A stretch of DNA of 62,725 nucleotides, counting the filler, from Chrysochromulina tobinii (Eukaryota): assembly GCA_001275005.1 (NCBI GenBank). It is 5 parts of 5 records of this genome, joined end to end, with 100 filler letters (N's around TTAATTAATTAA, not from the genome) between each part and the next. Parts side by side here need not be neighbours in the genome. Positions count along the whole stretch, not along the records: positions 1 to 16,216 come from JWZX01001313.1; 4 more parts are not named here. One strand, given 5' to 3'. Both the position numbers and the translations under genes were made by a program. Below the pieces are notes generated by a model, which was not told the DNA's origin, ran no database searches, and was given only the letters and a program-made list of their open reading frames with translations. Below are positions 871 to 62,725 of the stretch, piece after piece. The stretch's first letter is position 1. The number at the start of each line of letters is the position of its first letter.

Positions 871-3353
871 TCATACATTGAGGGCATCTTTCTCACCGAG
901 ACCCGAAGCAGGTGCACGCAGGTCACATACTTCGATGGCCAGCTCCTCCTGCGCAGCCACCAAAAGATCGCGCTTGGTTCGCGCGTGGTGGTCTCGGTGG
1001 TACTCCGCATGGAGGTACGAGTACGCTTTGTGCCTGAAGGTCCGCTTGCGACCCACCGTGAAGCCGCGCGGAAAGAGGGCGTTCACGGTGTTGGAAAAAA
1101 AGAATTGCAGGAAGTCCGGCGCACGGTTCTTAATCTTGACCGCAGCAGAGAGCGCCAAGCGACCGCGCATGCCCACGTGGTTGAAACCAACCAGGAACAA
1201 GGTTCCGACTTTGCACTCGTCGCTCGCCAGCCGCAGCCGCACCGCGTCTGCAAGGGCGACGGCGCCGGCATCGCCAATGTCGTTGCTGCCCAGGTCGACC
1301 AACTGCAGCTCGCGCGCCTTGCCCATGGCGATGAAGGCCGCGAAGGATTGCAGGCCAGCGTCGCCTAAGTCGTTGCCGACGAAGAAAATCACCTTGAGGC
1401 CGGGCGCGACGCCACTGATCAGCGCGCTGCCGAGGGCCTCGACACCGCGTGGGCCCAGGCGGTTGAATCCAAGGAAGAGCTGCTCGAGCTGGGGCAGCGC
1501 GCCGGAGGAGAGGACGCCGCTGATGGAGGCGAGATGCTCGTCGGTGAGGCCGGTAAAGTTGAGATCGAGCCTCTTCAGGTTGACGCAAAAGTTGAGCGCC
1601 TGGCCGAGCCGTTCCGGCGAGCGCCACGGGTCCTTAGGGTCGAAGGGGATGCCGAAGAAAGAGAGCTCCTTGACGCAACCGAGGACGGCACGTGCCGTCT
1701 TCTCGTAGAGTGCGAGCACCTGCGCCCGGTCGGCGCCGTTGGTGAAACTGCGCTCCTTGAAGAGTTCCTCCATCCGCTCGGGCGTTGTCGGCAGCCTGCG
1801 AAGTGCTGCACGCTGCTTGCCGAGGTCGATGACGAGAGGCCAACCCGCCTGATGAGGGAGGCAATCAGGCTGATGAGGGAGGCAATCAGGGCTCATCAGG
1901 TTGATGACGAGGGGCCAACCCGCCTGCTGAAGGGTGAACGTCTTGCCGAGCTCCGCAGAGCACCGTTCGAACGTCGTCCAGCCGCGGCTTTCGTACGTGC
2001 GAATTGCATCGAACGATTTCGGCAGCTTCTTGGGCAGCTCGGTGAGCAGAACGACCGTCGTCTTGGAGTGCGCGTACCACAAGTCCATCGTGTGATCGAG
2101 TGCGAATTTCGTCGCCTGGGCCTGCGCCTCCGTTCGGCTGTCGCGGTAGCGCTCGGCCGCGCGCCGCTGGTCCTCGGTACGCTTCTCTTCGGCTATGAGC
2201 TCGGCCGGAGTCCACATCCTCGGATCCTTCTGAAAGAGGGAGGCCCAGTCGAAGAAGACGCCCATGTCGCAGAAGCCGTAGGCCTGGCACACGCCGAGCA
2301 GCCCAGAGCGGCGCAGCACGCCGAAGCTTGGGAAGAGGGTCTCCAGCCGTGTGCACAGCAGCCGCAGCTGCTCGCCATCGCAGTCTGGGTGCCTCGGTTC
2401 CAGCCAGCAACTGCGAGTGCACGCGGGGACATGCGGACCGTGTGAGAGGTGGGCGCCGGACACAATGAGGGGGATTGCAACTCAACGAGGGGGCGTTCGG
2501 CGCGACGTGACGCGTACTATGAGATGGCGACGATAGGGAGCAGGTCATCGACGTTGCGCTTGACAAACTTGCACGAGAAGATCTTGAAGAGCACGCGCAA
2601 CGCGCGCTTGAGCAGATTACCCTCACCAAGCTGCACCTCGAGCGTAAACGTCTCGTAAATCGAATAAAAGTCCACGCCGCGCTTCGCCTGCCGTGAGATC
2701 TTCTGCAGCTCGTCGACGCCGATGAAGGCGGCCTCAGGCAGCTCCTGCCGCCGCGGCAGGACGCCGCCGTATTCCCTGTGCACGCTGCTACCTGGCTGGC
2801 CGAGCGCGAGCAGCCACGACAGGCGCACCAGGCGCACCGGCCGCTCGCTCTCCTTGACGCCGTCGCCTTTGAGCGCTTCCCAGACCTCATCGTGGCCGAG
2901 GTAGCGCCGCGCAGCCGCCTGCGCCTCTTCGGAGGAGACGGCAGGGCTCGTACCTCTCGGGTGTGAGAGTGCCACCTCGCGAAGCGATTGGGATGGCTTG
3001 AGACGCTCCGAAGAGGGAATGCCACTGCAGGAGCACAGCCTGATGCCGACGGTCAGGCACAAGAGCGAGAGTGGCAGATAGATAAACTCCACACTCAAGA
3101 CGATTGCACTCACGATGCCCATGATCAGGGTCACGGGCAGGATGCACAAGTGGACCGCGAGGGGCATCGCGAGCAAGTCATGCAAGTAGAGGTGCGCCGC
3201 GAACACATGGACCGGAAAAAGAACGATGAGCAGAATGGGCGTGGCGATGGTCCCAATGAGCAGCATGGCCTGGATTACGTAACAGAGGGCGATTTGAATG
3301 GATGGCTTCCATGGCAGCGCGGTGCCCGACGGCAAAGTGCGGGCGGAGTTCAT
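871..3353 (-). CDS. Membrane-anchored HET-like domain + RI-type LRR protein (3 exons)
   Basis: ORFs 2517-3353 and 871-2463 join through GT-AG intron 2411-2517 (IVAISY|CWLEPRHPD). In-frame GC-AG intron 1849-1923. Hydrophobic N-terminal helices; HET-like motifs AISYCW, FFDWASLFQ, MDLWYAHS, YESRGWTTFER; C-terminal RI-type LRRs (LFLGFNRLGPRG, VDLGSNDIGDAG). Confidence 0.75.
1849..1923 (-). other. 75-nt GC-AG intron flanked by exon duplication
   Basis: Intron start copies the downstream exon (AGWPLVI encoded twice, 2 mismatches over ~28 nt); ends in two copies of CTGATTGCCTCCCTCATCAG. Confidence 0.7.
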
Positions 3354-4297: not shown

Positions 4298-4462
4298 ACT
4301 AGTACCATATAGCCCAAAAAGGGGGTGCCTGGCAGAACTAGCCCGAAAAGGAGGTGATCAAACTAGCCCAAAAAGGGGGTGATTGCACTAGCCCAAAAAG
4401 GTGGTGATCAAACTAGCCCAAAAAGGGGGTGATCGCACTATCCCAAAAAGGGGGTGATCGCC
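4298..4462. repeat. ~25-bp tandem repeat overlapping the PKS-NRPS stop codon
   Basis: About six copies of ACTAGCCCAAAAAGGGGGTGATC(GC/AA); the last encodes the C-terminal ITPFLG*. Confidence 0.85.
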
Positions 4463-7400
4463 TCGGCCACTCCCGCCGTCAACTCGCCGAACATCATCGT
4501 CCAGTGCGTGCCCGGCAGCTCGATCTTGTGCACCGTTGCCCGCGTCAGGTGCTGCAGCGAGCTCAGGAAGACGCATTCGCTCTGGTATGGGCGAGCGTCC
4601 ACGAGTGGGCAGCGCACGAGGGGGGTAGGCGTGGGCACGTGCGTGTCGAGCAGCCGATTGCATGCGACAAAGTGGCGCGCGGCGTTGGCACTGAGGCTCT
4701 CGAGCATCGCTTCGTCGTCGATCAGGGGAGCCAGCTGGGCGCGGAGCACCTGCCATTAGGTGCAATCAGGTTCAATCAGGTGCAATCAGGTGCAATCAGG
4801 TGCAATCGGGTGCAATCGGGTGCAATCATGTGCACTCGGATGCAACCATGTACATCAGGTGCAATAAGTTGCAATCAGGTTCAATCAGCATGGAGGGAAG
4901 CCAGCTGAGCACCTGCATGACCGCATCGCTGCGCGGGCTACCGTTGGCATCAAGACGCGGGCGGCCGTCCACATCGCTCGCTGTAGACGGATCGTGGAAC
5001 CCTCGGCCCTGCGTCTGCCCGAGTGGTGCATCGAACATGAGCACGGAGTGCACTGCTGGCAGAGGAGTGGGAAAGGTGTGTAGAGCTGGAGGCGCTGCGG
5101 AGGTGGGAGAGGGGTCGTCTTCACGCGCCATCTCGAGCGATCTCGCCTCGAGCTGACGCGCCATCTCGAGCGCCACTACACCACCGTACGACCAGCCGCC
5201 AAGCACGACGGCGGGCGACGCGCCCGCCATGGCGCCGCCCGCCACGGCGCCGCCCGCCACGCCGCCGCCCCCCAAGCCAAGTGCGTCGCTCATCAAGACG
5301 AGGCACTCCGCCGCAACCTCGGCGATCGACCCAAGCTGGAAGTCGCCGCCGTCGGTCAGGCAGCTGTCGTCGAAGGCGTACACGGGCCGTTGGTGGCCGA
5401 GGCGCCGGACCAGCGGCAGGTAGCACAGGCTACTTGCGCCTGCCGGATGGACCAAGAAGAGCGGCAGGTGCGTTGACGAATCCCCCGGCTGCAGGCACAC
5501 CATGCGCAGCTGGCGGGCGGGTGTGCCGGCGCTCGGGACGGCGCTCGACGCGCTGCCGCCGCCGTCCGCGGCGGTGGCGGCGGTGGCGGCGGTGGCGGCG
5601 GCGGCGGCGGCGCTGGCAGCGCTGGCATGCATTTGCGAGCAGATGCCGCGCACGGTGGGCTGTGCGAACAGTTGCTGGACCGTCAGCCGGGTGCCGAGCG
5701 CCGTCCTGAGCGCGAGCAGCAGCCGCAGGGCTGAGACGGAGTCGCCGCCTAGCCTGAAGAAGTGTGAACGTTCACAGCAGAGGGTCGCTACCGGTAGACG
5801 GAGGATGCTTGCCATCGCTTCACGCACCGCCGCCTCGACTGCGTCTGCTGGCTCCTCCACGGCGGGGGAGGTGCCCGACTCGGCGCCCTGCTGTGCGGAG
5901 CTTCGCCTGGTGGGCGGGGGGAGCCGTTTCCGATCCACCTTGCCGTTGGGGCTGAGCGGCACCTGCTCGAGCATCGTCCAGTGATGAGGGACCATGTAGT
6001 CGGGTAGCTTCTCGGCGCACAGGACACGGAGCCTGGCCTGCACGGCGTCGGCGTCGGCGGCGTCGGCTGTCCCGCCAACGGCTGTCCCGCCAACGGCTGT
6101 CCCGCCAACGGCTGACCCGCTAACGGCTGACCCGCTAACGGCTGACCCGCCAACGGCTGACCCGCTAACGGCTGACCCGCTAACGGCAGGCACCACGTAC
6201 GCGGCCAGCTTCCCTTCAAACACGGTAGCGGCCGCGCTCGCCACCGCAGCATCCTTGGTCAAGATCTCCTCAATCTCGCCGAGCTCGACGCGGAAGCCGT
6301 TCACCTTGACCTGCAATTTGAGGCAATCAGAGGTCATCAGAGGTCATCAGAGGCCATCCAATGCAATCAGAGGCCATCAGAGGCCATCGGAGGTCATCAG
6401 AGGCCATCAGAGGCCATCATCAGAGGCCATCCGATGCAATGAGAGGCCATCCGAGGCCATCGGAGGTCATCCGATGCAGTGAGAGGCAATGACCTGCGAG
6501 TCCTCCCGTCCCAAGATTTCTAGTAGCCCATCAGGGCGCAGACGACCAAGGTCGCCGGTTCGGAAGAGCATCGGTCCATTTGGGGTCGAAGGCGTCGTGT
6601 CGGGCGCGCCCGTGCGCAGGAATTGGCGCGCGCTCTTCTCGGGCTCCTGATGAGGGAGGCAATCAGAGGTCATCCGAGGCAATCAGAGGTCATCCGAGGC
6701 AATCAGAGGTCATCCGAGGCAATCAGAGGTCATCTGAGGCAATCGGAGGTCATCGGAGGTACCTCGTAGTAGCCCAACGCGACGCCTGCGCCGCCGATGT
6801 GGATCACGCCAGTAACCCATGGCTCGCAGTGATGGAGGTTGTCATCAAGGATGAGCATCGTCTGGTTGCGTAACGGCCGCCCGTACGGGATGGACGTCCA
6901 GTTGGGATCGGTGCTCAGCACGGCGCCCGGTGTGCCCTCGGGATGCAGCTCGTGCATATTCGACCAGATCGCGGCCTCGGTGGCGCCGCCCATGCTGATG
7001 ATGCGCAGCGCGGCACACTCGGACACGGCACGGATGCGCCCTGGGGAGAGCGCGCGCAATCCAACGAGCGATCAGAAGGCAATCGAGGTCAATCAAGAGA
7101 GATCAAGGGAGATCGCACCTGGGGAGAGCGCGCGAAACCAACGAGCGCTCAGAAGGCAATCAAGGGCAATCAAGGGCAATCAAGGGAGATCGAAGGAGAT
7201 CGATGGAGATCGCACCTGGGAGAGCGCGCGCAATCCAGTCTCCGCTCAAGAAGATGAGACGCAGGCAAGCGGGCAGCGTCCGGCCGGAATGCTCCGCATG
7301 CGCAACGAGCAACTCCATGAAGGCGGGCACGGTGTTCCAGATCGTGATCTGGTGCGAGCTCACGATCTCGAGCCAGATCTCGGGGTCGGGAGGGCTGATG

Positions 7401-10400
7401 AGGTCGTGAGGGGGCACGACCAACGAGGCGCCCGCGCCGAGCAGCCCGAAGACGTCATAGACGGATAGGTCGAAGCTGATGGACGAGAGCGCAAGCACGC
7501 GATCGGACGCACCGACGTCGAAGCGCTCGTTTAGGTCGAGGCACGTGTTCACGGCGCCCTGGTGGTGGCAACACACCCCTTTTGGAACGCCCGTCGAGCC
7601 CGAAGTATAGATGAGATATGCGAGCTCGCGGGGGCGCACGCGCCGTACTGGGCGCGGGTGAGCACGACGAGTGGCGTGCATGGCGTTCACGCCGACCGCC
7701 TCGTTCACACCGACCGCCTCGTTCACGTCAACGAGTGGCAATCCAACGGCTCGAAGCCATGCACACGCGCCGAGCGTGCTGGCGTCGCTCACGACGGCGC
7801 TCGCGTGGCTCAGCTCGAGGATCTGCTCGATGCGCTGCTGAGGCAGCTGGTCGGCGTTGATCGGCAGGTACGCGCAGCCCGCGCGCAGCACGCCCATCAC
7901 GGCGGCCACCTGCTCCCAGCCTTTGGTCGTCACGACGGCGACCACCGTGATCGAGCCGGGCGCTGTGCCGGGCGCTGTGTCGAGCGCCGAGCCAGGCGCC
8001 GAGCTGGGCGCCGCCGCCGTCTCGGGCGCCGTGCCGGCCTCTTCGGTGGCCGCCACTCCAACGTCCGCAAGCCGCGCCCAGACTGCCTCGGATGCGTGGT
8101 CGAGGGCGCGGTACGTGAGCGACGAGGACCGCCCACCCGAGGCATCGAGCCCGAGGACCGCCAACGCGTCGTGCCGAGCGCCCGTTGCATGCTCGGCGAA
8201 GAGCTCATGCAGCAGGCGTGTGTCGAGCTCGGAGGGAGGTGCGACCGGCAGCGCCGCCGTGGGCTCGGGGCGCAGCTCATAGACGAGTTTCGTCCACGCG
8301 CTCTCGTCGGTGCAGAGGGAGTGCAGCAGCCCCTCGTACATGGAGACCATCCCCGTCACCACCTCTGTGGGGAAGAGATCCTGCATGGACGCGAGCGAAG
8401 CCGGCGCCATCAGATGCCATTTGGTGCCATTGCCATCGGGTGCAATCAGGTGCCATCCGGTGCCATCCGGTGCCATCCGGTGCCATCAGGTGCCATCAGG
8501 TGCAATCAGGTGCAATCAGGTGCCACGCACCCGCATGATCTCGAGCAGCCACATGAGGCGCCCGTCGGGGTATTCCTTGACCGCATTCACCACGTACGAA
8601 CCGGGCGTCGCCTCTTGCACATGCACCTCGGTGAATTGAAGCTCGCGCCAATCGGACAATGCATGCTCGAGGCCCATCGCACTGACGAAGACGAAGGGTG
8701 CGACAGCGGCACCCGCTTGGTGGTGTACCTGCGTGGTCCGAGGCAATCCGTTGCCCTCAGAGGTCATCAGGTGCCATCAGGTGCCATCAGGCGTTCTCAG
8801 GAGCACACTCGGGCACACGGGCGCACTCATGTTGCAGTCCGGCGCAGTCAGGCGCCATCGGATGCAATCAGGTGCGATCCGGCGATGCCCACCTTGTTGT
8901 ACTGCTCCATGACCTCGACACCCGAGATCGACGCGTGCTCGAGATCTCGCATGAGCTCGTGCGTGAGTGCCTGGACGTGCTCCAGCACCGTCCTAGGTCG
9001 CTCAAGGTCAGCCTCGAGGAGGAAGGACGAGGAGAAGTTGCCGAGGATCTGGGAGGCGTCAGCATGCAATCACAGTGGTAATCAGTGGTAATCGGTGGTA
9101 CTCGGTGGTAATCAGTGGTAATCGAGGATCTGGGAGGCGTCAGCATGCACCGGGTGGCGATAGGGTGAGGAAGGCAATACGCGAGGCTATACGTGTGACG
9201 ATGAGCGGTACTCAGCAGTACTCGGTGGCAATCAGTGGTCATCAGTGGTCATCAGTGGCGCTCAGAGGAGGCGTGACCTTGGAAACGTCCTCGTGCACCG
9301 GGTGGCGCAGGCAGTGCAGGATGTTCAAAAGGAAGCGCGGGTGGCGAGCGAAGCGCGCCAGCACCAGGCAATAGATCGTCAGCATGACCGAGGTGGGCGT
9401 CACCCCGCGTGCGGCACAGCAAGCCTTGAGGCGCGAGAACATCTCGGCGCTCAGCACGGCGCCAATGTGACTAAACTCGCCCGTGGGGCGCCGTTGGCCC
9501 GGGGCCACAAGCATCGGCAGCTCCGGCGGCGGCGGCAGTTGCGGCACGCGATCCCACCAAAACGCCTTGGCAGCTTGGTACTCGGCGGAGGCCGCGAGCC
9601 CCGACGAGCCCTTGGCGCCGTCCTGAGCGCCGGTGAGGGAGAGGCAGTAGTCTTTGTACAGCAGCGAGCAAGCCGGCAGTTGGGCGTTCGGATCCTCGTA
9701 CAGGATCGAGAGCTGCCGGCGCATGGTCAGGTCGGACACCCCATCCATAATGAAGAGCGAGATGCAGAAGTGCATCGTCGACTGAGTGGGCGAGGTATGC
9801 GACACACGGCACTCGAAGAGTGGCCACGTCTCGGGGCGCGGACCTGTGGGGAGAGGGCGCGCCATGGTGAGCACTTGCATGCATGTGTGTATGGAAGAGT
9901 GGCCACGTCTCGGGGCGCGGACCGTCCCGAACCATCTGCGCCCTTGTGGCGAGCATCTGCTCGGGAGTCGCATGCCCATGCGGCGTCTCCACCGTGATCA
10001 CGTACTCGGGCACTCGCTCCAGCACGCGCATCATGCCGTCCGGCGTAACCACAGCGCGCCATGCCGGGTGGTGAGCACATAGCCGGTTCAGAGCCGCCTG
10101 CAGGCGTGCGATTAGAGGTCGTCAGAGGTCGTCAGAGGTCGTTAGAGGTCATTAGCGGTCATCAGAGGTCATTAGCGGTCATCAGAGGTCATCAGAGGTC
10201 ATTCATTAGCGGTCATCAGAGGTCATCAGAGGTCATCAAAGGTCATCAGAGGTCATCAGAGGTCACCTGCAGGCGCGAGATGTCGATCCGTCCCTTCCAT
10301 TGCCATTCAAAGTAGATCTGCGGGTTGAGCCCCTTCTCGGAGAATTCGGAGATGTGCAAGCCCACATAGTACGCCCGCGTGATGCCGATGAGTGGGAAGG

Positions 10401-13400
10401 GCTCGTGCGCCCTCTCGTGTGCATGCACCACCTGAAACAAGGGTGCCTCCTCCCCTGCCCTTCCTTGTATGGCAAGCCCGTGCTTCGCGTACGCGTCAGG
10501 CTGATCGAGCCGTTGGAGCGCCGTCTTGAGCGCCACCTGATCGTCCACGTGCCTGGCCAGCTGGCGTACGGTCGGCTTCTGGAAGACGGTGCGGATCGTG
10601 AGCTTGTACCCGCCGCGACGTCCTATCTCCTGTGAGGCAGAGAGGCCACGACAGAGGGGATCAGAGGGGCGATCAAAGAGGCCATCAGAGAGGCCATCAG
10701 AGAGGCCTTCAGAGAGGCCATCAGAGGCCATCAGAGGCCATCAGAGAGGCCATCAGAGGCCATCTGAGGCCATCTGAGAGGCCATCAGAGTCCATCAGAG
10801 GCCATCAGCTGAGAGGCCAACCGAGAGGGGATCAGGTCCTACCTGCACCAGCCGCAGGCAAAGCAACGAGTCGCCGCCTAATTGGAAAAAGTGAGCATCG
10901 AGGTCGATGGCTGTGGGGCCATCGAGCTTGAACACGGCCGCAAAGGCCGCTGCAAGCTGCAGCTCGGTCTCGGTGGTGGGCGGCGACACGACTGTATGGA
11001 CCGCCGCCGACGTAATTGACGTAATTGACGTAATTGACGTAATTGACGTAATTGACGTAACTGTATGGACCGCCGCCGACGCCACCGCCGCCGACGACGA
11101 CGACGACGCTGCCGCCGCCGGCGCCGCCAGGGGGCGCGCGGGCTGCTGCACGCTCGCACTTGGGGCCGATGGAGGGGGCGTCGTGCTGGGCACGGCGGCG
11201 GGTAGCCCGCGCTTGAGGGTGGCGGCGATGGTGGTTGCGAGATCGGTGACGCTCAAGACAGCGCTCGACGGCGTGCCCGGGCCCGCGGCAGTTGCGGCGG
11301 TCGTGCTCACCACGGCGCCTGCCATCCGCGGCGGCGGCAGGGTGTGCGCAATCTCGCCCACGGAGATGAGGGGCGAAGCAGCGAGATGCGTGAGCGTGAG
11401 CACGATCGCCTCGAGCATGCCCTCGAGAAAGGCGCCGTCGTGGGCGTCGCTCTCGGACGTGGCCACGACGCTCAGCAGGCTGTGGGGAGCGGCCGCCGAG
11501 CCGCGCTCCATTGCGAAGCGGACGGTGAGCGGCATGCCGATGCGATCGTAGATCGTAGGGGGGGCGGCGCTCACGCCGCCGTCGAGCTCGAGGCCCCATG
11601 CGGCCGATTGGTAGTCGACGATCACGAAGAAGAGGTCGCCATCTCGCACCTGTGGGGAAGGGAGGGCACCGCGCCGTGGTGAGCACTTGCATGCGAGCCG
11701 GGCCGGATTCAGATCGCGATCTCGGACCGAGCTCAGCTGCTTGATCTTCGTGAGCGGGTAGCTCTCATGTAGCTGACACAAACCGAGCTGCCGGTGAATC
11801 GCACGCGCCGTCGCGGCGGCGCCCGCCGCGCCCACGAGTGGCACACGAAGAGGCACCGTGTTCATCACAGGCCCAATGACCTGATGAAGAATTCAATCAA
11901 TAGGTCATTAGATGCCAATCAGAGGTCATCAGAGGCCAATCAGAGGTCATCAGAGGCCCAATGACCTGCGCGAGCTGCGGCACGGGCGCCGTGCGTCCCG
12001 ACAGGGCACACCCAAAGACGACCTCGTCGGCATCGGCCCCCTCGTACACCCACTGGACGATGGCCCACGCGGTGTGGCAGAGCGCAGCGATCGTCACCCG
12101 CTCCTGCACAGCAAGCGTCCTCAGCCGCTGCAGCACGGCGCTGTCGAGGACACACCGACGGCGCGTGGCGACGCCGGTCGCGGTTTCAGAGCAGCACATC
12201 TTTAAGGCGCCCAAGCCCGCCGGGATCGGGCGCGCCGTGCTGGGCAGGCTGTGCACCGCCTGCTGCCAGAACGCCTCGGAAGCGGAGCCCGGCTCGGCGC
12301 TTAGGGCGGCTTCATGACGCAGCTTTACCTCGTACGAGGGCGGCGGCGGCAGCGGCACGCCCGGCGTGTTGTACCCATGCGCGACGGCGTCGACGAGGAG
12401 GCGGAGGGACCATCCATCTTCGATGATGTGGTGGATGGACAGCAGCATCAAGTGCTCCTCTGCGCCAAACTGAAGCACGCGGACGCGAAGCAGCGGCGCG
12501 CACTCGAGATTTGAAAGCTCCGCGCGCTCCGTGGCCATCACCTGCTGCGCGAGCCCCTCGCGCGCGCGCACGCTCGTGCAATCGGGATGCACGCTCACGC
12601 CGAAAGGCAACTCGGCAGTCGGTTCGACGACCTGCTGCGGCTGCGGGAGCGCCTGGAGGTCGAAGCGCGTGCGCAGCATCGGCGTGGTGGCGACCAGCTG
12701 ACGCCACGCCGCGTGCAGTCGCGCCGTGTCGAGCGCCCCGTGGAGCTGCCACATGATGGAGAGGACAAAGGGGTGCTGCTCGGGGGAGCGGGCGGGGGAG
12801 GACAGTCAGCATGCAAATGGGGAGGGCAATCAACGGGTGCTGCTCGGGGGAGCGTGGGAGAACAGTCAGCATGCAAATTGGGAGGGCAATCAGCATGCAT
12901 GCACGCGCACCTGCTCGGGGGAGCGCAGGTGCTCGAAGATCATCGCGCGCTGGAGGGCGGAGGTCTCCATCACGAGCCCATCTCGGCGCGCGGAGGTCTC
13001 CATCACGAGCCCATCTCGGCGCGCGACACTTCGTTGATTGCCCTCCCCATTTGCATGCTGACTACCCTCCATTGCGATCCAACCTCGGTGCGCAGGGGGC
13101 GGCAAATCGCTCTCGACGACGGTGAGCCATCCATTCACATTCACAGAGTCGGACGAGCTCAGCGAGTGTGAATCGGCCGATCCGGCAAAGTCGACGGTCT
13201 CGGTCTCGTCAACCACGTCATCCTCGGATCCTAATTTGGACGAGATCTCGATCTCCGACTTTGTCTCCGGTTCGAGCGCCGTCCCGAGCGCCTCGAGGTG
13301 TGACATTGCCTCCTCGACCAGCCGTTGTACGCTCAGGTTCAGAAGCTCGTCCGGCTGGAGGTACATCTGCACGCGCGCCCGGCGCGGCGCGTCGTGGGGA

Positions 13401-16216
13401 AAGAGCCCGTCCAGGATCTGGTCACGGAGCTCGACGGACGAAAGGGAGTCGAGACCCCTCTCCACCAGAGGTGCCCATTGCAGCGCCTCCATCGCCGCCT
13501 CTGACGTGCCCTCGGCCAGCGGCAGCACCGTATTCACAGCCTGCTTCACGAGGCTCAGCACCGACGCACGGCTATGGCGCTCAACACGGCGCTCGGCGCT
13601 GCCGCGGCCACTTCCGTTGGCTTCGAGCACGCCCTCGGAATGGTGATCAACACGGCGCCCAATCTCCGGCGCCGAGCTCGCGAGCGCAGCGCCCGCGCCC
13701 GCGGCAGCGCTCGCGCTCTCGGCAGCGCTCGCTCGCGTCGTCGTCGGGCGCCAGCGCCACGGGTAGACTTGCGTGCGGTAGGCGGCAGCGCCGAGATGGG
13801 CACCGAGCATCGCTCGGAGGGGTGCGCACTCTGCAGGCGCGGCGGGGCGTCCGCGGCGACCTGATGGACAACGTGGGCGGCATGGGCGGCGCCGCTTGCA
13901 GCAGTGCGTGCGCGTTGCTGCCCCCAAACCCAAACGAGCTCACGCCCGCGACGGCGCTCGGTTCGGCGGCGGAGTCTGGGGGGGAGGCGCGCCGGAGGGG
14001 GGTGCCCGCGACGGCGCTCGGTTCGGCGGCGGACTCCTGGGGGGAGGCGCGCCGGAGGGGGGTGCTCTGTACCGGTAAGGCGAGCCCGTACGCCCGTAAA
14101 AAGGGGGCCACCTGGGGGTTGAGGGCGCTCAGGTGGCCATTGGTGAACGTGCTCGCCAGCCGGAGCGCAAGCGCCGTCTTGAGCATGCCCGCCATCCCGG
14201 CGGCGCCCTCGAGGTGGCCCACACAGGCCTTGATGGCGCCGATCATCACGGGCCGTTGGCGGTGTGGGGAGCGCTCGACGAGTGCGGCATGCAACGCAGC
14301 TGCTTCGATTGGGTCGCCGAGTGCGGTGCCCGTACCTGCGGGGATAATGCGCTGTGGTGAGCGCTTGCATGCAAGGCAGGTCATCAGTGGCAATCAGCGT
14401 ACCTCCTCACTTGCATGCAAAGCAGGTCATCAGGTGGCAATCAGCGTACCTCCTCACATACATGCAAGGCAGGTCATCAGGTGGCCATCAGCGTACCTCC
14501 TCACATACATGCAAGGCAGGTCATCAGGTGGCCATCAGCGTACCTCCTCACATACATGCAAGGCAGGTCATCAGGTGGCCATCAGCGTACCGTGTGCTTC
14601 GAGCAGCGTGACCTCGGCCGCCGTAACGCCGCCGTCAGCCAACGCTTGAGCGAGCAACGCCTGCTGTGCCCGCGCACTCGGCGCCGTGAGCCGCGCGGTG
14701 CGTCCGTCGCTGTTGACGGCCGTGCCGCGGATGAGGCACAGGGGCGGCAGCAGCCTTCTGCGCGAGCTCATCGGGCGTCGAGCTCCACCCTCGGGAGATG
14801 TGAGCTCCGCCTCGGGAAATGTGAGCTCCGCTTCCGGAGATGTGAGCTCCGCCTCGGGTGATTGGAGCTCGACAAGCAGCGCGCCGCCGCCCTCGGAGCG
14901 CACGTAACCGTCGGCGCGAAGGGCAAAGGCCTTGCATCGCCCCTCCACCGAGAGCATGCCCGCATGCTTGCGCACCTGATGAGGGAGGCAATCATCGGGT
15001 CATCAGTGGTCACCAGTGGTCATCGGTCGTCATCAGTCGTCATCAGTCGTCATCAGTCGTCATCAGTCGTCATCAGCATGCTTGCGCACCGCGAGGGCGC
15101 GAGGCGAGAGTAGCAAGTCGAACGCGCCCACGACGACGCGGTCCACGCCGCGGCTCGGCTCTCGCAGCAGACGCGCCGCCAGGTGCAACGCGGTGCCTGC
15201 CGACGAGCACGCGGTGTCGACGACGAGGCTCGCGCCGCCCAGCCCGAGCACATACGAGAGACGGTTCGCAGCGATTGAAGGGGCGACGGAGGTGCCCAAG
15301 AAGGCGCCGCCCCGGGCGCCGTGTGCACTCGAGGCGAGCTCGAACTGCCAGTCGTGATTTGAGAGCCCGACGCACACGGCCGTGCGGGTTTGGCTCGCCA
15401 TGTGCGACGGGGAGCGCAGCAGCTCGCCCAGTGTCTTCGGACGACTTTTGGCGGGGGCGGACGAGTCGCCCAAGACGGCGCCCACGAGAATCTCCGTGCC
15501 GAGCTCGAGAAGGAGCCGTTGATGAGGATCCATTGAGATTGCCTCCGCCTCCGCGATCCCAAAAAAGGAAGCTCCAAACCGCTCGGCGCCCTGCGGCGCG
15601 CTCAAGAAGCCGCCGAACGCCTCGCCGCCGCCGCAGGCATCGCCGCTCCAGCCCGGCGGGCCGGTGTGAATGGCATCGCCGTGTGAACGTAGCAGGCTTG
15701 TGAGAGCGTCGGAGCGGTTGCAGCCGCCCGGTAGGCGGCTGGACGTGAGCACGAGCGCGATGGGTGCCTCGACGAGCGGGCGAGCGAGCGAGGCGCGAGA
15801 CGCGCCGGCAGCGGAGCCCGCGTCAGCGGCAGCAGCAGCAGCAGCAGCAAGGGAGGGAGCGGGAGGGAGGCCGTCGCCACCGCCGCCGCTTTGGCTGGCG
15901 GCACGAGCGTCAAGGTAGGCCAGTACGGCGCGCGGCGTCGGGTGGTCGAATAGCAGCGTGCTCGGCAGCGGCGCCAGCTGCGGCGCCACCTCGCGCTCGA
16001 GTAGCGTGAGCAGCTCCGAGAGCGCGAACGAGTCAAACTCCATGTCCATCAGGGAGCTGTCGAGGCAGCTGGCGAGATCGATCGAGATTGAGAGGCTCGC
16101 ACCCACGCGCTGAAGCGCCGCCCCGAGCGCGCCGTCGAACTTAGGCGCCGATGCCGCCGGTGTCGCGGACGCCGCCGGCTTCACAGACAACGCCGTCGGC
16201 GCCGCCGCCGCCGCTG
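4438..16216 (-). CDS. Hybrid PKS-NRPS megasynthase, 5'-truncated at contig end: ACP-KS-ACP-C-PCP-Cy-A-PCP-TE
   Basis: ACP EFDSFALSEL; KS MDPHQRLLLE, DTACSS, EAHGTGTALGDPIE, GHLEGAAG, VSSFGFGGSNAH; ACP GLDSLS; C HHIIEDGWS; PCP FFQLGGDSL; Cy-like EPFPLIGITRAYYVG, WPLFECRV, GVTPTSVML, LGNFSS; A YTSGSTGVPKG, GGATE, FRTGDLGR, QVKVNGFRVELGEIE, NGKVDR; PCP FFRLGGDSV; TE HPAGA, GWSYGG, PGTHW. Fourteen GT-AG introns checked by hand join successive ORFs in phase; one junction (~13730-13900) is unresolved. Confidence 0.93.
4750..4912 (-). other. GT-AG intron with (TGATTGCACC)n repeats and 10-nt junction duplication
   Basis: GCAG|GTGCTC at both ends; phase 0 join of TE exons. Confidence 0.85.
6070..6190 (-). 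repeat. In-frame 15-bp coding tandem repeat (GSAVS/GTAVG)
   Basis: About eight copies of AACGGCTG(A/T)CCCGC(C/T) inside the A-domain C-terminal subdomain. Confidence 0.85.
6311..6493 (-). other. GT-AG intron with (TGATGRCCTC)n repeats
   Basis: GCAG|GTCA at both ends; restores GREDSQ|VKVNG. Confidence 0.9.
6647..6762 (-). other. GT-AG intron, 10/20-nt repeats, ends CTGATTGCCTCCCTCATCAG
   Basis: Restores ALGYYE|EPEKS in phase 0. Confidence 0.9.
7041..7215 (-). other. GT-AG intron whose 3' end copies the upstream exon end, with internal tandem duplication
   Basis: TGGATTGCGCGCGCTCTCC(C)CAG at exon end and intron end, plus a diverged internal copy; phase 1 join. Confidence 0.85.
8381..8530 (-). 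other. GT-AG intron with (TGATKGCACC)n repeats
   Basis: Phase 0 join EIMR|DLFP. Confidence 0.85.
8729..8892 (-). other. GT-AG intron with 10-nt repeats
   Basis: Phase 0 join YNK|VHHQ. Confidence 0.85.
9049..9277 (-). other. GT-AG intron with (TGATKACCAC)n repeats and duplicated acceptor
   Basis: Restores EDVSK|ILGNFSS; TGCATGCTGACGCCTCCCAG-ATCCTCG present twice. Confidence 0.88.
9844..9922 (-). other. 79-nt GT-AG intron whose first 29 nt exactly duplicate the downstream exon
   Basis: GTCCGCGCCCCGAGACGTGGCCACTCTTC after both donor and acceptor; phase 1 join. Confidence 0.9.
10098..10266 (-). other. GT-AG intron with (TGATGACCTC)n repeats, 10-nt junction duplication
   Basis: CGCCTGCAG|G at both ends; phase 0. 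Confidence 0.88.
10630..10842 (-). other. GT-AG intron with TGATGGCCTC(TC) repeats
   Basis: Splits the PCP: LRLVQ|EIGRRG. Confidence 0.88.
11650..11727 (-). other. In-frame 78-nt GT-AG intron with diverged exon duplication
   Basis: GTCCGAGATCGCGATCT vs exon GTGCGAGATGGCGACCT; shares GCATGCAAGTGCTCACCA...CCCCACAG cassette with 9844-9922. Confidence 0.75.
11881..11965 (-). other. 85-nt GT-AG intron with 15-nt junction duplication
   Basis: CAG|GTCATTGGGCCT at both ends; phase 0. Confidence 0.9.
12776..12910 (-). other. GT-AG intron with two copies of the upstream exon end
   Basis: CGCTCCCCCGAGCAG at exon end, mid-intron and intron end; two TGATTGCCCTCCC..TTTGCATGCTGACT cassettes. Confidence 0.88.
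12982..13083 (-). other. Probable in-frame intron carrying the shared cassette in antisense orientation
   Basis: CGAG|GTTGG...CGAG|AT; 33-nt tandem duplication gives an alternative acceptor at 13015. Confidence 0.5.
14336..14590 (-). other. GT-AG intron made of ~47-nt tandem repeats
   Basis: Restores EAHG|TGT (phase 1); GGTACG at both ends; ends in GCATGCAAGCGCTCACCACAGCGC...CCCCGCAG. Confidence 0.9.
14976..15089 (-). other. GT-AG intron with 15-nt junction duplication and (TGATGACGAC)n
   Basis: G|GTGCGCAAGCATGC at both ends; ends TGATTGCCTCCCTCATCAG. Confidence 0.9.
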
Positions 16217-16316
16217 NNNNNNNNNNNNNNNNNNNNNNNNNNNNNNNNNNNNNNNNNNNNTTAATTAATTAANNNNNNNNNNNNNNNNNNNNNNNNNNNN
16301 NNNNNNNNNNNNNNNN
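16217..16316. other. Artificial contig linker
   Basis: N-run + TTAATTAATTAA + N-run, 100 nt, stops in all six frames. Confidence 0.97.
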
Positions 16317-24912: not shown

Positions 24913-25309
24913 TGATCACGTCGGCCTGGGAACCGTGAATTCCTCTTGTCTCGGCGCGCAGTCGGCCATAACAAGTTGACAACCCGACGAACCAAATTTG
25001 GGACTTGTCCCGGAGAGACTACAATGTACATTGTAATGTCGTGCGGGTGTGCTGGAGGGTTTGGATGGTTGTGAGGTTCGTCTGAGTGTGATCTGTGATC
25101 CGTGTGCCCGTGTGCGCCCGGGTGTGTCTCGTGTGTGTCCCGGCTCCCCCCCGGTGTCTCACCGTAAAAAGACAGTGTGGGGCCGTGGGGAGCCGGGACA
25201 CGAAGAAGACACAGGAGGCCGGTTCAAAAACACCGTGGCTTTGAACAAGTTTTACAATTCGACACCCGTTCACAGCGGGATTCCGCAGATCGAGAGTCGA
25301 TGAGCTGAG

Positions 25310-26797
25310 ATGCGCCCCACGCACATGTCCGCGGTCGCACCGCAACGCTCTGCGGCCGTCATTGGCGCGGGCCCCGCCGGTCTCCTCACGGCCATTATGC
25401 TCTCGCAGCGCGGGTGGGGTGTCAAGGTATATGACGCTCTGCCGCCACCACCATCGGCGGAAGACAACGATCTATGGTCTTCGGGCGAGCGCAGCTACCA
25501 GCTCGGCCTCAACGGTCGAGGTCAGCGCTCGTTGCGCGAGTTTGGCGTCATGGAGCGGGTGTCGCGCTACGCGGCCTCGGTCAACGGGCGGCTGAGCTTT
25601 GATACCAAGACGGGCGCGCCTTCTGAATCGCGTTTGATTCCACCGGGCCAACCGGGCGCGGAGAAGACGTATGTAACACGCGTGCTGCAGCGCGATCGGC
25701 TTCAGGCGTGCCTGCTCGAGGAGGTGCGAGAGCGCTATCCCAACGTGGCGGTGAGCTTCCAGGTGACATGCGACGGCGTCGACCTCTCCGGCGAGCGGCC
25801 GGCGGTCACCTTATGCCCTTCGGCCGAGACTGTTTCCAGTCAAGAGGAGCTGGAAGGGTGTGCCGTGCCGCCTGTCGGGTTGACGGCCTTTGACCTCGTC
25901 GTGGGCGCCGACGGCGTGCGCTCGGCCGTGCGCGAGGCGCTGGCCGCGTCGCCGGCCACGAGCACGCGCCCGGTGCGTTTTGAGGACAGGAACGCTCGGC
26001 GGTACAAGACGCTTGCGCTGCACCCGAGCGCCGTACCCGGCACCTCGTCGGACCTCAACTGGGGCTGCCGCAACCGCACGCTCGACCTCGGCATGGATGC
26101 CCTCCCGACAGTCGATGGCGAGATGGTGGCTGTCCTCCTCTTCAAGCCAGGCTCGGCCGCGTACAAGGCGATTGAAGGGCTCCAGACGGCGTCCGAGGCG
26201 CGCGACTGGCTGGCGGAGGCGCTGCCGCCTTTGCTCCCGTACGTGCGTGAGGCTGATCTCGAGGCCTTCGTGGGGCGCCCGATCTCACGGCTGCCCTCCT
26301 TTCAGCTCGTCGAGGGTGACATCCACGCTAGGCTAGCGGCGGGCGGCGTCGTCCTCCTCGGGGACTCTATCAAAGCAGTCAAGCCCTATTTTGGACAAGG
26401 TGCCAACTCGGCGCTCGAGGATGTGTCAGTTCTCGCGCGCTGCCTTGCCGCGTGCTCTGATGAGCCCGCCGCCGCCGCCGCCGCCTTCACCGAGGCACGC
26501 GCCGAGGACGCGCGCGCGCTCGTGCGCACCTCGCGTGGCTTTGACGGGCGCGGCCCTCTTGGCACGGCCCGATTCCTGATGCCACTTCTTCTCGACCTGC
26601 GGCTGCACGCGCTGCTGCCGGCCGTCTTCACGCCGCCTATGCTGCGCGGCCTGCAGGACGAGCGCAACACCTTCACGGGCTTGCGGCGGCGCAAACGGCT
26701 CGAGCGGGCGCTGCTGATGGTGCTCGTCGGCTGGGCGCTCCTCGGCGCGCGGTTCGGCGTCAAGCTGTGCGCGAAAGCCCTTTTGGGAGCGGGATGA
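25310..26797 (+). CDS. FAD-dependent monooxygenase, kynurenine 3-monooxygenase-like
   Basis: VIGAGPAG, RSYQLGLNGRG, VGADGVRSAVR, LLGDSIKAVKPYFGQGANSALED. Confidence 0.85.
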   Translation: MRPTHMSAVAPQRSAAVIGAGPAGLLTAIMLSQRGWGVKVYDALPPPPSAEDNDLWSSGERSYQLGLNGRGQRSLREFGVMERVSRYAASVNGRLSFDTKTGAPSESRLIPPGQPGAEKTYVTRVLQRDRLQACLLEEVRERYPNVAVSFQVTCDGVDLSGERPAVTLCPSAETVSSQEELEGCAVPPVGLTAFDLVVGADGVRSAVREALAASPATSTRPVRFEDRNARRYKTLALHPSAVPGTSSDLNWGCRNRTLDLGMDALPTVDGEMVAVLLFKPGSAAYKAIEGLQTASEARDWLAEALPPLLPYVREADLEAFVGRPISRLPSFQLVEGDIHARLAAGGVVLLGDSIKAVKPYFGQGANSALEDVSVLARCLAACSDEPAAAAAAFTEARAEDARALVRTSRGFDGRGPLGTARFLMPLLLDLRLHALLPAVFTPPMLRGLQDERNTFTGLRRRKRLERALLMVLVGWALLGARFGVKLCAKALLGAG

Positions 26798-41070: not shown

Positions 41071-41170
41071 NNNNNNNNNNNNNNNNNNNNNNNNNNNNNN
41101 NNNNNNNNNNNNNNTTAATTAATTAANNNNNNNNNNNNNNNNNNNNNNNNNNNNNNNNNNNNNNNNNNNN
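41071..41170. other. Artificial contig linker
   Basis: Same N/TTAATTAATTAA/N linker. Confidence 0.97.
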
Positions 41171-56931: not shown

Positions 56932-57031
56932 NNNNNNNNNNNNNNNNNNNNNNNNNNNNNNNNNNNNNNNNNNNNTTAATTAATTAANNNNNNNNNNNNN
57001 NNNNNNNNNNNNNNNNNNNNNNNNNNNNNNN
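56932..57031. other. Artificial contig linker
   Basis: Same linker. Confidence 0.97.
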
Positions 57032-57049
57032 TTTGCTGGAGTTGCACGT

Positions 57050-59271
57050 GTGCGAGGCGGTGACAGCCCGTTGATGCTGGCGTGCACGCCCATTGTATTC
57101 CGCAAGGACGGCCAAAGCAGCAGAACAAGACAACAATCGACTCCAGACCTCCCCGGTGGTCTAGTCAACATCAACGTGCTTTCGATGTCCGCCGACAGGA
57201 TGGCGCATGCGATGCGGGCGAGCGTGAGTCAAAGCGCCTTCGAGTCGGTGACGTTGAAATCGGTGGGGACGCATCCTTACGTGGTGGTCGCATTCGTCCA
57301 GCTCTTCACCCACCAGACGACATTCAAAAATGACGAGGAATGGCTAGAGGCACAGTACCCGAAACTCGTGCAACTACTTTACGGGCCCGTAGCAATCGTG
57401 ATGGCATACAAGGAGCCGAGACAACTGCTTTTGGTGTCCGTTGACGACTTGCGTCCAGGTTTAGACGGCATGAAGATCCCGCCACCGACGATCTTCAAAG
57501 CAGGGACAACAGCTATTCGCGCCATGATCGCCAAGATGATCACTGAAGAGAAGGGCAAACTTCGCGCTGACGCCAACGATAAGATGCTCTTTGCAGCTGA
57601 GTGGCCAAACGGCCGGGAAAGCGGGCTCAGTCCGAGATCGAAGCTGGATCAGCTAGTATCCATGCAGTGGGCGATCGGCGCATTCCGTGCCTCGAGCATG
57701 CTGACGGGTAATGGGAACGCGCAGCAAGAGCATCAGAAGGCCGCGCCCGCCTTAACCGCGCCCAAGCCAAAGAAGCAGAAGCTCGATGCGCATTCAAACA
57801 ATGATTCTCCGAATTCTTCGGCCGGGTCGAGCATGTCGACTGTACGCCCGAGTGCCCATCAAACGAAGCCGCCTAGCTCGTTGGTGCCGAAACGAGGCGC
57901 CTCCCAATCTTTGGTACCATCGACCATGAATTCAGACCCTGCCGTCATGGTGTTTGATGAGGACGACATTGCATCCCTTTCCGAATCGCTGCGGGAAGCG
58001 ACTTCACCGTCGAAGTCAGGACCCGAGAATGAGCTCATGAGTTCAGTCAATACCATGATGGCAAGGGCAAGAGACAGGTTAACCTTTGATGCCGAACCAC
58101 GGGAAGTGGTATTCAAATATCTTTCGACAGCAGCGAGCAAGTTGGTGACTGAAAAGATCCTCCCAACACTGGAGCGGATGAAGATCTACGTCGCACTCGC
58201 AAAGAACCCGTGCAAGGTGGCTGAACTTGAAGCTATCAAAGTGGAAGCAGATCAGTATGAGCGAACCGCACTCTCCGCTATTGAGCTCTTGCACTGTGAG
58301 TGCAAGAGATACAAACACGACTACACTCCTCAAACGGGGACAAAGATGAAGATCGAGCAGGCAAAGAGCCACGTTCATACTGCAGTAGATGAAGCTCGGG
58401 AGAAGCTGAACAAGGCGGCCGCTAGCAAGGCGAAGAAAGCAAAACTGTCGGTGGATCCCTTTCCCCCCCTTGCCGCCCAGCAGGTGGCGGGCCACGCCGC
58501 GTCCGCCGCCCAGGGACAAGCCGCGCTCGCCGCCCAGCAGCGAGAGATCGCCGCCCAGCAGGCGGCGGGTCAAGCCGCGCTCGCCGCCCAGCAGCGAGAG
58601 ATCGCCGCCAAGCTAGCGACAATTGAGGCAAACTCAAAGAGAACTGCAGAACGGGAGAGGGAATCCCAACGACAGGCAGCGGAGCTGAACAGAGTTGAAA
58701 ACTTGGCGCTGGACGCCAGCAACAGAGCAGCGCTCGCATTGCAGTCGCAAGTCGCTGTTGTGCAATCGGCTCTTGAGTCGAAGGAAAAGGCAGAGCAGGA
58801 GGCACATAAGCTCAAGATCGAGAGGGAGGAGATGAATAAGAAACTTATTAAACTTCAAACGGAACAAGCAGTACGCAATGCCCAATCTGACGAGGAGGCG
58901 AAGGGAAGGGTAGCACTTGAGGCGATGCGGCAAAAGATGGAGGAGCGGATGGAAGCGAACGATAAGCAGTTGAACCAGTTGAAGGTCGAGAATGCCAAGA
59001 CTGTAGCAACCATGGAAACGAAGGATGCGGTGCATCTAACGGTCGAACAGCTTCAGAACCAACTGACGCAAGCATTGGTGGGCCAGGCTCTCGCGAAAGG
59101 CGCTTTCACCGGTCTTTTCGCCTCCGGCGGCGGCGGTGGTCCAAGTGGGTCGAACAATGCGCAATGGTTTCAGGCGAACCTTAAGCCTCTCTTGATGGGA
59201 GGATCAAGCTCGGGAGACGGCTTATCGGCGCCGCCACGTCCTCCAGAGCTGATGCCACCTCCGCCGCCCAG
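57050..59271 (+). CDS. Hypothetical coiled-coil protein, 3'-truncated
   Basis: >700 uninterrupted codons; long E/K/Q/A heptad region; duplicated AALAAQQREIAA. Confidence 0.65.
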
Positions 59272-59371
59272 NNNNNNNNNNNNNNNNNNNNNNNNNNNNN
59301 NNNNNNNNNNNNNNNTTAATTAATTAANNNNNNNNNNNNNNNNNNNNNNNNNNNNNNNNNNNNNNNNNNNN
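59272..59371. other. Artificial contig linker
   Basis: Same linker. Confidence 0.97.
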
Positions 59372-59373
59372 AT

Positions 59374-62300: not shown

Positions 62301-62725
62301 GCTCTGCTCCGCCGGTGACCAGGTCAAGCGCATCCAGATCGCGAGGGGCGTTGAGGACTATGCGGCCACGCACGCGACGATCTCGGACAACCTGCAATTC
62401 AAGCTCATGCTCTCGACGGCAACCCTCGGCGATGTTCAAGACGAGCAGGGACGCCGCGTCCTCCCTTGGCGAGATGGCCAAGACGAGCAAGCGCAAGCGG
62501 CCACACTGCGGGAGCTGATGGCCAAGGACCCAAAGCTCCGCCGCGTCCCGAACGACGTCACGTCCACGGACTTCAAGAACGCGTATCCGAAGGCCGCACG
62601 CCTCCGTGATGTTGGCTTCATGGAAACCTACGAACCAATGTACGACGATGAGGGCGACCAGCTCTGCTACAAGCTCGGCGCCCCGATCTGGGGAGAAGCT
62701 GCTGCGGGCAACGAGTGGGAGCAGG
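59374..62725 (+). mobile_element. Ty1/copia LTR-retrotransposon pol polyprotein (protease-integrase-RT), open at both ends
   Basis: Hand translation from 59374: protease VQIDGGANTNLF (~59926) and RRDLLG; integrase HTFQVDGFG..WLIIDAVSDY, KVLIFDACP, HNRIPKME; RT KFKSRLCSAGDQ, STDFKNAY, CYKLGAPIWGEAAAGNEW. INT-before-RT order defines copia. No LTR visible. Confidence 0.88.

Follow-up and report, generated by a model that had tools for sequence, protein, structure and literature searches.

An algal polyketide-peptide synthetase with a variant Cy domain is likely not a siderophore-like thiazoline synthetase

Does an algal gene that ends like a bacterial thiazoline synthetase also close a thiazoline? 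The question is raised by a locus of the microalga Chrysochromulina tobinii (assembly GCA_001275005.1), which we analyzed in a stretch of 62,725 nucleotides made of five joined parts, hereafter the window. Its minus strand carries a hybrid polyketide synthase-nonribosomal peptide synthetase (PKS-NRPS) gene at 4438..16214, with 16 exons and 3155 aa within the window, which a preliminary description had read as an AT-less synthetase ending in a cysteine-specific Cy-A-PCP-TE module and likened to bacterial thiazoline siderophore synthetases. With the start of the gene supplied by another assembly of the same DNA (L002), the domain order is GNAT-ACP-KS-ACP-C-PCP-Cy*-A-PCP-TE, where Cy* is a Cy-type domain with replaced active-site residues. 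The gene is likely a Cy-containing PKS-NRPS variant rather than a siderophore-like thiazoline synthetase, and our preferred reading, to which we give about even weight, is that it makes N-acetoacetyl-Cys-Cys without a thiazoline, the two Cys being joined by a Cy-derived condensing domain.

The second condensation-family domain (8288..10416, minus strand) was delimited from PDB matches and alignments, and RNA joints confirm both borders of the exon that holds its catalytic motifs. All eight PDB matches were Cy domains (EpoB at E 2.7e-21, BmdB, HMWP2, FmoA3, and PchE among them), and a model of the relative P0078 has the Cy fold (pLDDT 88.9; TM 0.79 to 5T3E), with 16 Cy chains ranking first; the model supports the fold only, not residue distances. 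Ring closure in this family has been assigned to an Asp-Thr dyad and a Gln close to it (PMC9547227, PMC8807600), and cyclodehydration suffers severely when the dyad is mutated (PMC9547227). Searched alone, the 66-aa exon that carries the dyad motifs had no useful match in the PDB, and the dyad register was taken from the relative P0001 aligned with BmdB, which is gap-free at the dyad motifs and has Val at both dyad residues in P0001, together with a 335-row alignment. In the window gene, Val replaces the dyad Asp at 8590 (the position of BmdB D1226 and PchE D480) and the dyad Thr at 8686, Ser replaces the first Asp of the DxxxxD motif at 9760 (SLFIMD, the second Asp retained), and Ala2037 stands at the position of the helper Gln, with the latch Thr2029 retained. 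The described ending therefore stands as to its Cy family but lacks the ring-closure dyad, and the proposed likeness to thiazoline siderophore synthetases is not supported. Replacement of both dyad residues, of the helper Gln, and of the first DxxxxD Asp together with the Arg that pairs with it weakens the case for a thiazoline and favors a linear Cys-Cys product.

The same replacements recur in a group of relatives. Among 150 best representatives and 15 earlier matches, about 22 rows stood apart from a mass at about 30% identity, and a quick tree of 65 of the 335 rows (18 from the clade, 30 top-scoring, 14 random, and 3 chosen variants) places Cy* as one clade (SH-aLRT 97) inside the ordinary Cy domains. 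The dyad Asp column holds 13 Val, 2 Ile, 1 Ser, and 4 gaps in the 20 clade rows, the lone Ser being the end of a fragment, against 294 Asp, 13 Glu, 1 Ile, 1 Asn, and 6 gaps in the 315 other rows; that is, Val or Ile in 15 of 16 Cy* rows versus Asp or Glu in 307 of 315 other Cy rows. Some Cy* rows nearly duplicate one another, which makes the row counts larger than the number of independent cases, and counts beyond the dyad columns leave out P0002, P0017, and P0040, which are fragments or mis-spliced. The first DxxxxD Asp is Ser or Asn in 17/17 Cy* rows, its salt-bridge Arg partner is Leu in 15/15, the helper Gln is Ala in 14/16, and the gating Phe is Cys in 15/16. The clade has also gained D1785, R1789 (18/18), H1928, E2009, E2027 (16/16), and K2039 (15/15); all of these but R1789, together with C1925, are listed as clade-specific from the alignment, with E2027 at 8614 and K2039 at 8578 on the minus strand. 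Because the Asp swap is clade-wide and accompanied by near-invariant Cys, His, Glu, Lys, and Asp residues of its own, Cy* is, as judged by its conservation, a coherent clade and not a product of decay.

Named Cy* members come from three algal lineages, Cymbomonas tetramitiformis, Chlorochromonas danica, and Prymnesium polylepis, the last being the nearest to the window gene; all three species are mixotrophs. Cy* was also found on contigs filed as Ectocarpus fasciculatus and as an archaeon. These two, P0078 (CAN0430466.1, filed brown alga) and P0107 (RYH00244.1, filed archaeon), sit on contigs of 2-2.5 kb, fall in a chrysophyte-type subclade, and are possibly misassigned or contaminants. The complete form in Chlorochromonas danica is GNAT-ACP-KS-AT-ACP-C-A-PCP-Cy*-A-PCP-TE; AT varies within the family, some members having it and P0176, P0178, and the window gene lacking it. 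In P0166 (Cymbomonas), residues 1116-1350 form a second thioesterase that separates C from the first A domain, and its C domain showed no HHxxxDG motif. The sister of the clade in the quick tree is P0112/P0094, whose A domains also fall among algal A domains; their order is KS-AT-ACP-Cy'-A-PCP-Cy-PCP-TE, with one A for two carriers, and their Cy' has Ser for the first Asp and for the dyad Thr and retains the dyad Asp. A bacterial origin of the module had been suggested, and its Cy and A domains do nest among bacterial-type Cy-module domains, but no bacterial donor was identified. A plasmid tblastn returned 354 records, all below 60% identity (best rows 29-37%), a Cy* motif scan of prokaryote genomes gave 94 pattern matches, one of them a 33-residue match at E 9e-5, and no Cy*, and the same scan of viral contigs gave 0/88, both scans being weak ones with two exact patterns.

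Upstream of Cy*, the domains point to a short polyketide. The 251 aa that L002 adds upstream of the N gap hold an MT-lid remnant and a GNAT loading decarboxylase, assigned by matches to the GNAT domains of SxtA, GphF, and CurA (E 8e-22 to 9e-18). GNAT-ACP precedes the first KS, and the MTRC and FH motifs are present, whose Thr/Ser and His residues are catalytic in GNAT loading domains. The window protein gave Pfam matches to KS, two condensation-family domains, AMP-binding, PP-binding, and TE. On the minus strand follow the loading ACP (15885..16124; Pfam PP-binding E 2.5e-5; Ser at 16031), the KS (13866..15764; Pfam), whose intact triad (Cys 15209, His 14594, and His 14216) had been described correctly, and ACP2 (13325..13564), which Pfam missed and which has a GLDSL motif shared with relatives (Ser at 13447). 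No AT follows the KS, tblastn with the AT domains of three relatives found none in the window, L001 (a further assembly of this DNA), or L002, and the gene start is GNAT, so that the whole polypeptide has no AT; the AT-less assignment thus survived the contig extension. AT-less PKSs are usual in algae (Shelest 2015, PMC4661987). The starter unit is GNAT-ACP-KS, and the aryl carrier and salicylate-type starter of aryl-capped siderophore synthetases are absent. Because there is a GNAT, a single KS, and no KR, DH, or ER in the ACP2 module, the polyketide portion is likely only acetoacetyl.

The peptide part has a C domain (11347..12949; Pfam E 3.8e-33) with an intact HHxxxDG motif (His at 12430), PCP1 (10534..10989; Ser at 10869) behind a low-complexity linker, Cy*, the only A domain (5909..8185; catalytic Lys at 5941), PCP2 (5624..5848; Pfam E 4.6e-12; Ser at 5740), and a terminal TE (4441..5473; Pfam E 4.3e-9; GWSYG Ser 5191 and His 4506, motifs retained in relatives), all on the minus strand. 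The five A-domain motifs listed earlier (FDLSVYD, WNTVP, LIFLSGD, SMGG, and AIWS) are all present. The pocket had been read as DLYNLSMIWK; it is of cysteine type as proposed, but position 299 is F, giving DLYNFSMIWK. This code occurs in 5 of 175 A domains of other retrieved Cy proteins, among which DLYNLSLIWK is commonest (83), and the predicted substrate is likely Cys. The earlier suggestion of a sulfur-containing polyketide-peptide is supported. In a divergent subclade, P0005 and P0128 have Ser at pocket position 239, and their substrate may differ.

An A-less C-PCP module thus sits between ACP2 and Cy*, and no A-domain remnant was seen between C and PCP1 in the window gene; its near relative L003 has the same A-less C-PCP1 junction. 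Full-length relatives have two A domains, both of Cys type. In seven two-A relatives, the A1 and A2 cores are identical at 289-334 of 342 positions, and their pocket codes are identical in all six for which codes were read (P0142 yielded none); P0023 and P0088 each duplicate one of these six. A1 is absent from the window gene and P0128, which belong to different subclades, and A2 is absent from P0176/P0125; P0004 and P0006, close relatives of the window gene, retain A1. Because A1 is lost here, A2 is lost in another relative, and the two are near-identical, the comparison suggests that one A domain could load both carriers. In HMWP2, where carriers outnumber A domains, one A domain loads several PCPs with Cys. 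PchE dimerizes head to tail by way of Cy-A (PMC8807600), and by analogy a PchE-like dimerization could bring the upstream carrier within reach.

Put together, these parts would make the preferred product, N-acetoacetyl-Cys-Cys, as follows. A trans-acting AT would load malonyl onto both ACPs; GNAT would decarboxylate malonyl to acetyl, and the KS would make acetoacetyl-ACP2, as proposed for LynB1, in whose scheme an MT-lid-GNAT-ACP-KS gives acetoacetyl-ACP (PMC10127204). The single A domain would load Cys on PCP1 and PCP2, the C domain would form acetoacetyl-Cys, Cy* would add the second Cys by condensation without thiazoline closure, and the TE would release the product. The GNAT, KS, C, A, TE, and all four carrier motifs are intact in the window gene and L002, and in PchE the Q482A and T474A mutations tripled the linear product (PMC8807600). 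The two free thiols of such a product would, speculatively, suit metal binding or redox chemistry.

Several observations weigh against this scheme. The Cys specificity is a prediction from a pocket code that agrees with BmdB at 8 of 10 positions (read from the P0001/BmdB alignment), and the A exon has its top PDB match in FmoA3, a module for alpha-methylserine. The shared A domain of HMWP2 loads downstream carriers, whereas that of the window gene must load an upstream one, for which we found no precedent, and a search of the window, L001, and L002 for AT turned up no trans-AT gene. Within Cy*, the dyad Thr is retained in half of the clade (8 Thr and 8 Val), the equivalents of PchE T474, Y114, and N368 are retained in the window domain, and the invariant Glu at the PchE S472 position, beside the dyad site, could replace the base. 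Finally, peptide formation, too, was nearly lost in PchE D480A (PMC8807600); a domain deprived of the Asp may therefore no longer be able to condense.

That last mutant also bears on a reading in which the window copy is non-productive or skips a module: PCP1 would stay empty or receive its residue from a separate A protein, or Cy* would serve as scaffold only. The lack of an A remnant before PCP1 fits it, as do about six stand-alone A-carrier-TE genes in haptophytes (PMC7073580). We nevertheless hold it to be improbable: the frame is open over 3,406 aa with intact motifs and spliced transcripts in four RNA runs, crude counts give pN/pS of 0.29 against L003 over 462 codons across C-PCP1 (and 0.32 against L006, the other near relative, over 932 codons), a sign of selection, and the single-A layout is found again in the distant P0128.

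The clade-gained residues suggest two further possibilities. Cy* might still close the thiazoline through a relocated base, Glu2027 with Thr2029 and Lys2039, to give an acetoacetyl-Cys-thiazoline carboxylate, which would be the chemistry first proposed, carried out by another active site. By our own count from D480, E2027 and K2039 align to PchE S472 and Y484, and S472 hydrogen-bonds D480 (PMC8807600); Glu occupies the dyad Asp position in 13 of 315 ordinary Cy rows, the modeled relative P0078 keeps the Cy fold, and Cy active sites do vary, as PchE shows (PMC8807600). The joint replacement of the Asp, the helper Gln, the gating Phe, and, in this subclade, the dyad Thr nonetheless makes such closure unlikely. 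Other chemistry through Cys1925, His1928, Asp1785, Glu2027, and Lys2039, for example ring closure through the beta-keto group or through a thiol, or a Cys-Cys thioester, would account for the many near-invariant new polar residues, which go beyond the needs of simple loss, and the atypical Cy of caerulomycin biosynthesis forms a C-C bond between a beta-ketoacyl donor and Cys (PMC8149447). Here, however, no partner flavoprotein domain or gene was seen at the locus, the donor of Cy* would be peptidyl rather than ketoacyl itself, and the new invariants may merely shape substrate binding, so we give this reading a small chance as well. Similarly doubtful is the broader proposal that Cy* is a new condensation-superfamily subtype whose distinct catalytic residues (Cys, His, Asp, Glu, and Lys) close an unprecedented sulfur heterocycle on acetoacetyl-Cys-Cys, and that bacteria-eating algae from three supergroups share a single metabolite made by the family.

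All of these readings concern a real, expressed, and intact gene. Three-frame reading of the minus strand gave an open frame from 16214 to a stop codon at 4440-4438, its coding blocks interrupted by introns full of repeats; removal of 15 GT-AG introns and of one base at 13844 yields a single frame of 3,155 aa, and the 251 aa from L002 bring the full length to about 3,406 aa. The gene is larger than the extent given earlier, 4438..16216. The extra base (13844..13844), which shifts the frame between KS and ACP2, is an error of this assembly: neither RNA run X12 nor DNA run X1 (depth 70.3 of 70.3) contains it, and L002 differs from the window there by a single gap. An intron at this frame jump was considered and rejected in favor of this error. 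In the stretch checked with contigs of four RNA runs, 10 of 11 introns have GT..AG joints of the predicted lengths, the 255-nt KS intron having no joint among these contigs; the last four introns lie outside that stretch, and RNA pieces end at three of their borders. DNA contigs read through the introns unspliced. Transcription, which the preliminary description had left to be checked, is thus established by RNA contigs that are evidence of presence and not of expression level. No NCBIfam family exceeded its cut-off for the window exons.

Several introns, such as 14976-15089, 11881-11965, and 9844-9922, start with a copy of the first 15-30 bases of the next exon and are packed with tandem repeats of 10 bp, a hint that introns were gained through duplication followed by expansion of the repeats. 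Introns rich in repeats are characteristic of haptophytes. Of the 12 loci that a scan of metagenome contigs returned, L001 and L002 are the other assemblies of the same DNA (99.7-99.99%). Position 16217 is a contig break, across which L002 carries the gene on to a first ATG at L002:5810, where relatives also begin; an RNA contig spans L002 5816-6131. The runs of N around TTAATTAATTAA (16217-16316, 41071-41170, 56932-57031, and 59272-59371) are contig spacers, and the DNA past 16316 is not a true neighbor of the synthetase; upstream of the gene, L002 has no stretch matching the window past the spacer.

Leucine-rich repeat (LRR) genes lie on both sides of the synthetase, at window 874-2481 and L002 3163-5499, both on the minus strand, and the upstream one in L002 is on the strand opposite to the synthetase. 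The next contigs (window 17518-55000) hold ordinary eukaryotic genes: O-fucosyltransferase, WD40, GT8, an FAD monooxygenase (25304-26794), a Na/Ca exchanger, a p300-type acetyltransferase, DnaJ, and a YidC-type gene. Long A-rich open frames at 56984-59323 and 59320-62724 on the plus strand have no Pfam match.

We know of almost no algal NRPS with a known product. Here the product is short enough to predict (a C4 cap and two Cys), the gene is transcribed, and relatives occur in cultured algae, so the compound is directly searchable; since one or the other A domain has been lost in different lineages, loading of the upstream carrier can be put to the test. Cy* also offers a natural experiment on how condensation and ring closure come apart in Cy domains, the mechanism of which was described as unknown as late as 2022 (PMC9547227). 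For Cy* genes, the automatic annotation as thiazoline siderophore synthetases (JGI names) is probably wrong.

How does the gene compare with known systems? A partial Chrysochromulina parva hybrid with N-acetyltransferase, KS, C, and Cys A domains and no product (O'Neill 2020, Fig. 4c, PMC7073580) is, judging by its described domains, probably the window gene or its orthologue; the accessible part of that account treats a fragment and does not mention the Cy domain, the missing A domain, or the family. Hovde 2015 (PMC4580454) describes a different hybrid, and we found no description of the Cy* clade or its product in the open-access literature. Non-cyclizing Cy domains are not new as such, because condensation-only partners in tandem Cy pairs have been mentioned (10.1101/2022.03.18.483834). 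The loading modules of LynB1, CurA, GphF, and SxtA share the GNAT-ACP-KS start with MTRC and FH motifs, but the window gene has no cis AT and no O-methyltransferase, only an MT-lid stub. Caerulomycin CaeA2, likened here to Cy*, joins a beta-ketoacyl unit and Cys through a Cy without forming a thiazoline, and requires a Ct domain and a trans flavoprotein, neither of which was seen in the window gene (PMC8149447). In HlmE and DtpB (holomycin and thiolutin), Cy-A(Cys)-PCP yields Cys-Cys with Cy as the proposed condenser, although there a single PCP is loaded again and A-PCP alone is enough, with oxidases and a late acyltransferase completing the ring (PMC10134970); the window gene has two PCPs, would make its N-acyl cap first, and has no tailoring genes adjoining, its neighbors being of LRR type in place of dithiolopyrrolone-type oxidoreductases or acyltransferase, and eukaryotic partners need not be linked. 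With BmdB (bacillamide), PchE (pyochelin), HMWP2 (yersiniabactin), and EpoB, finally, the gene shares the Cy fold and sequence family and the Cys-type A pocket; it differs from them in its replaced dyad Asp/Thr, helper Gln, first DxxxxD Asp, and gating Phe, in having no aryl starter, and in the A-less carrier upstream of its A domain.

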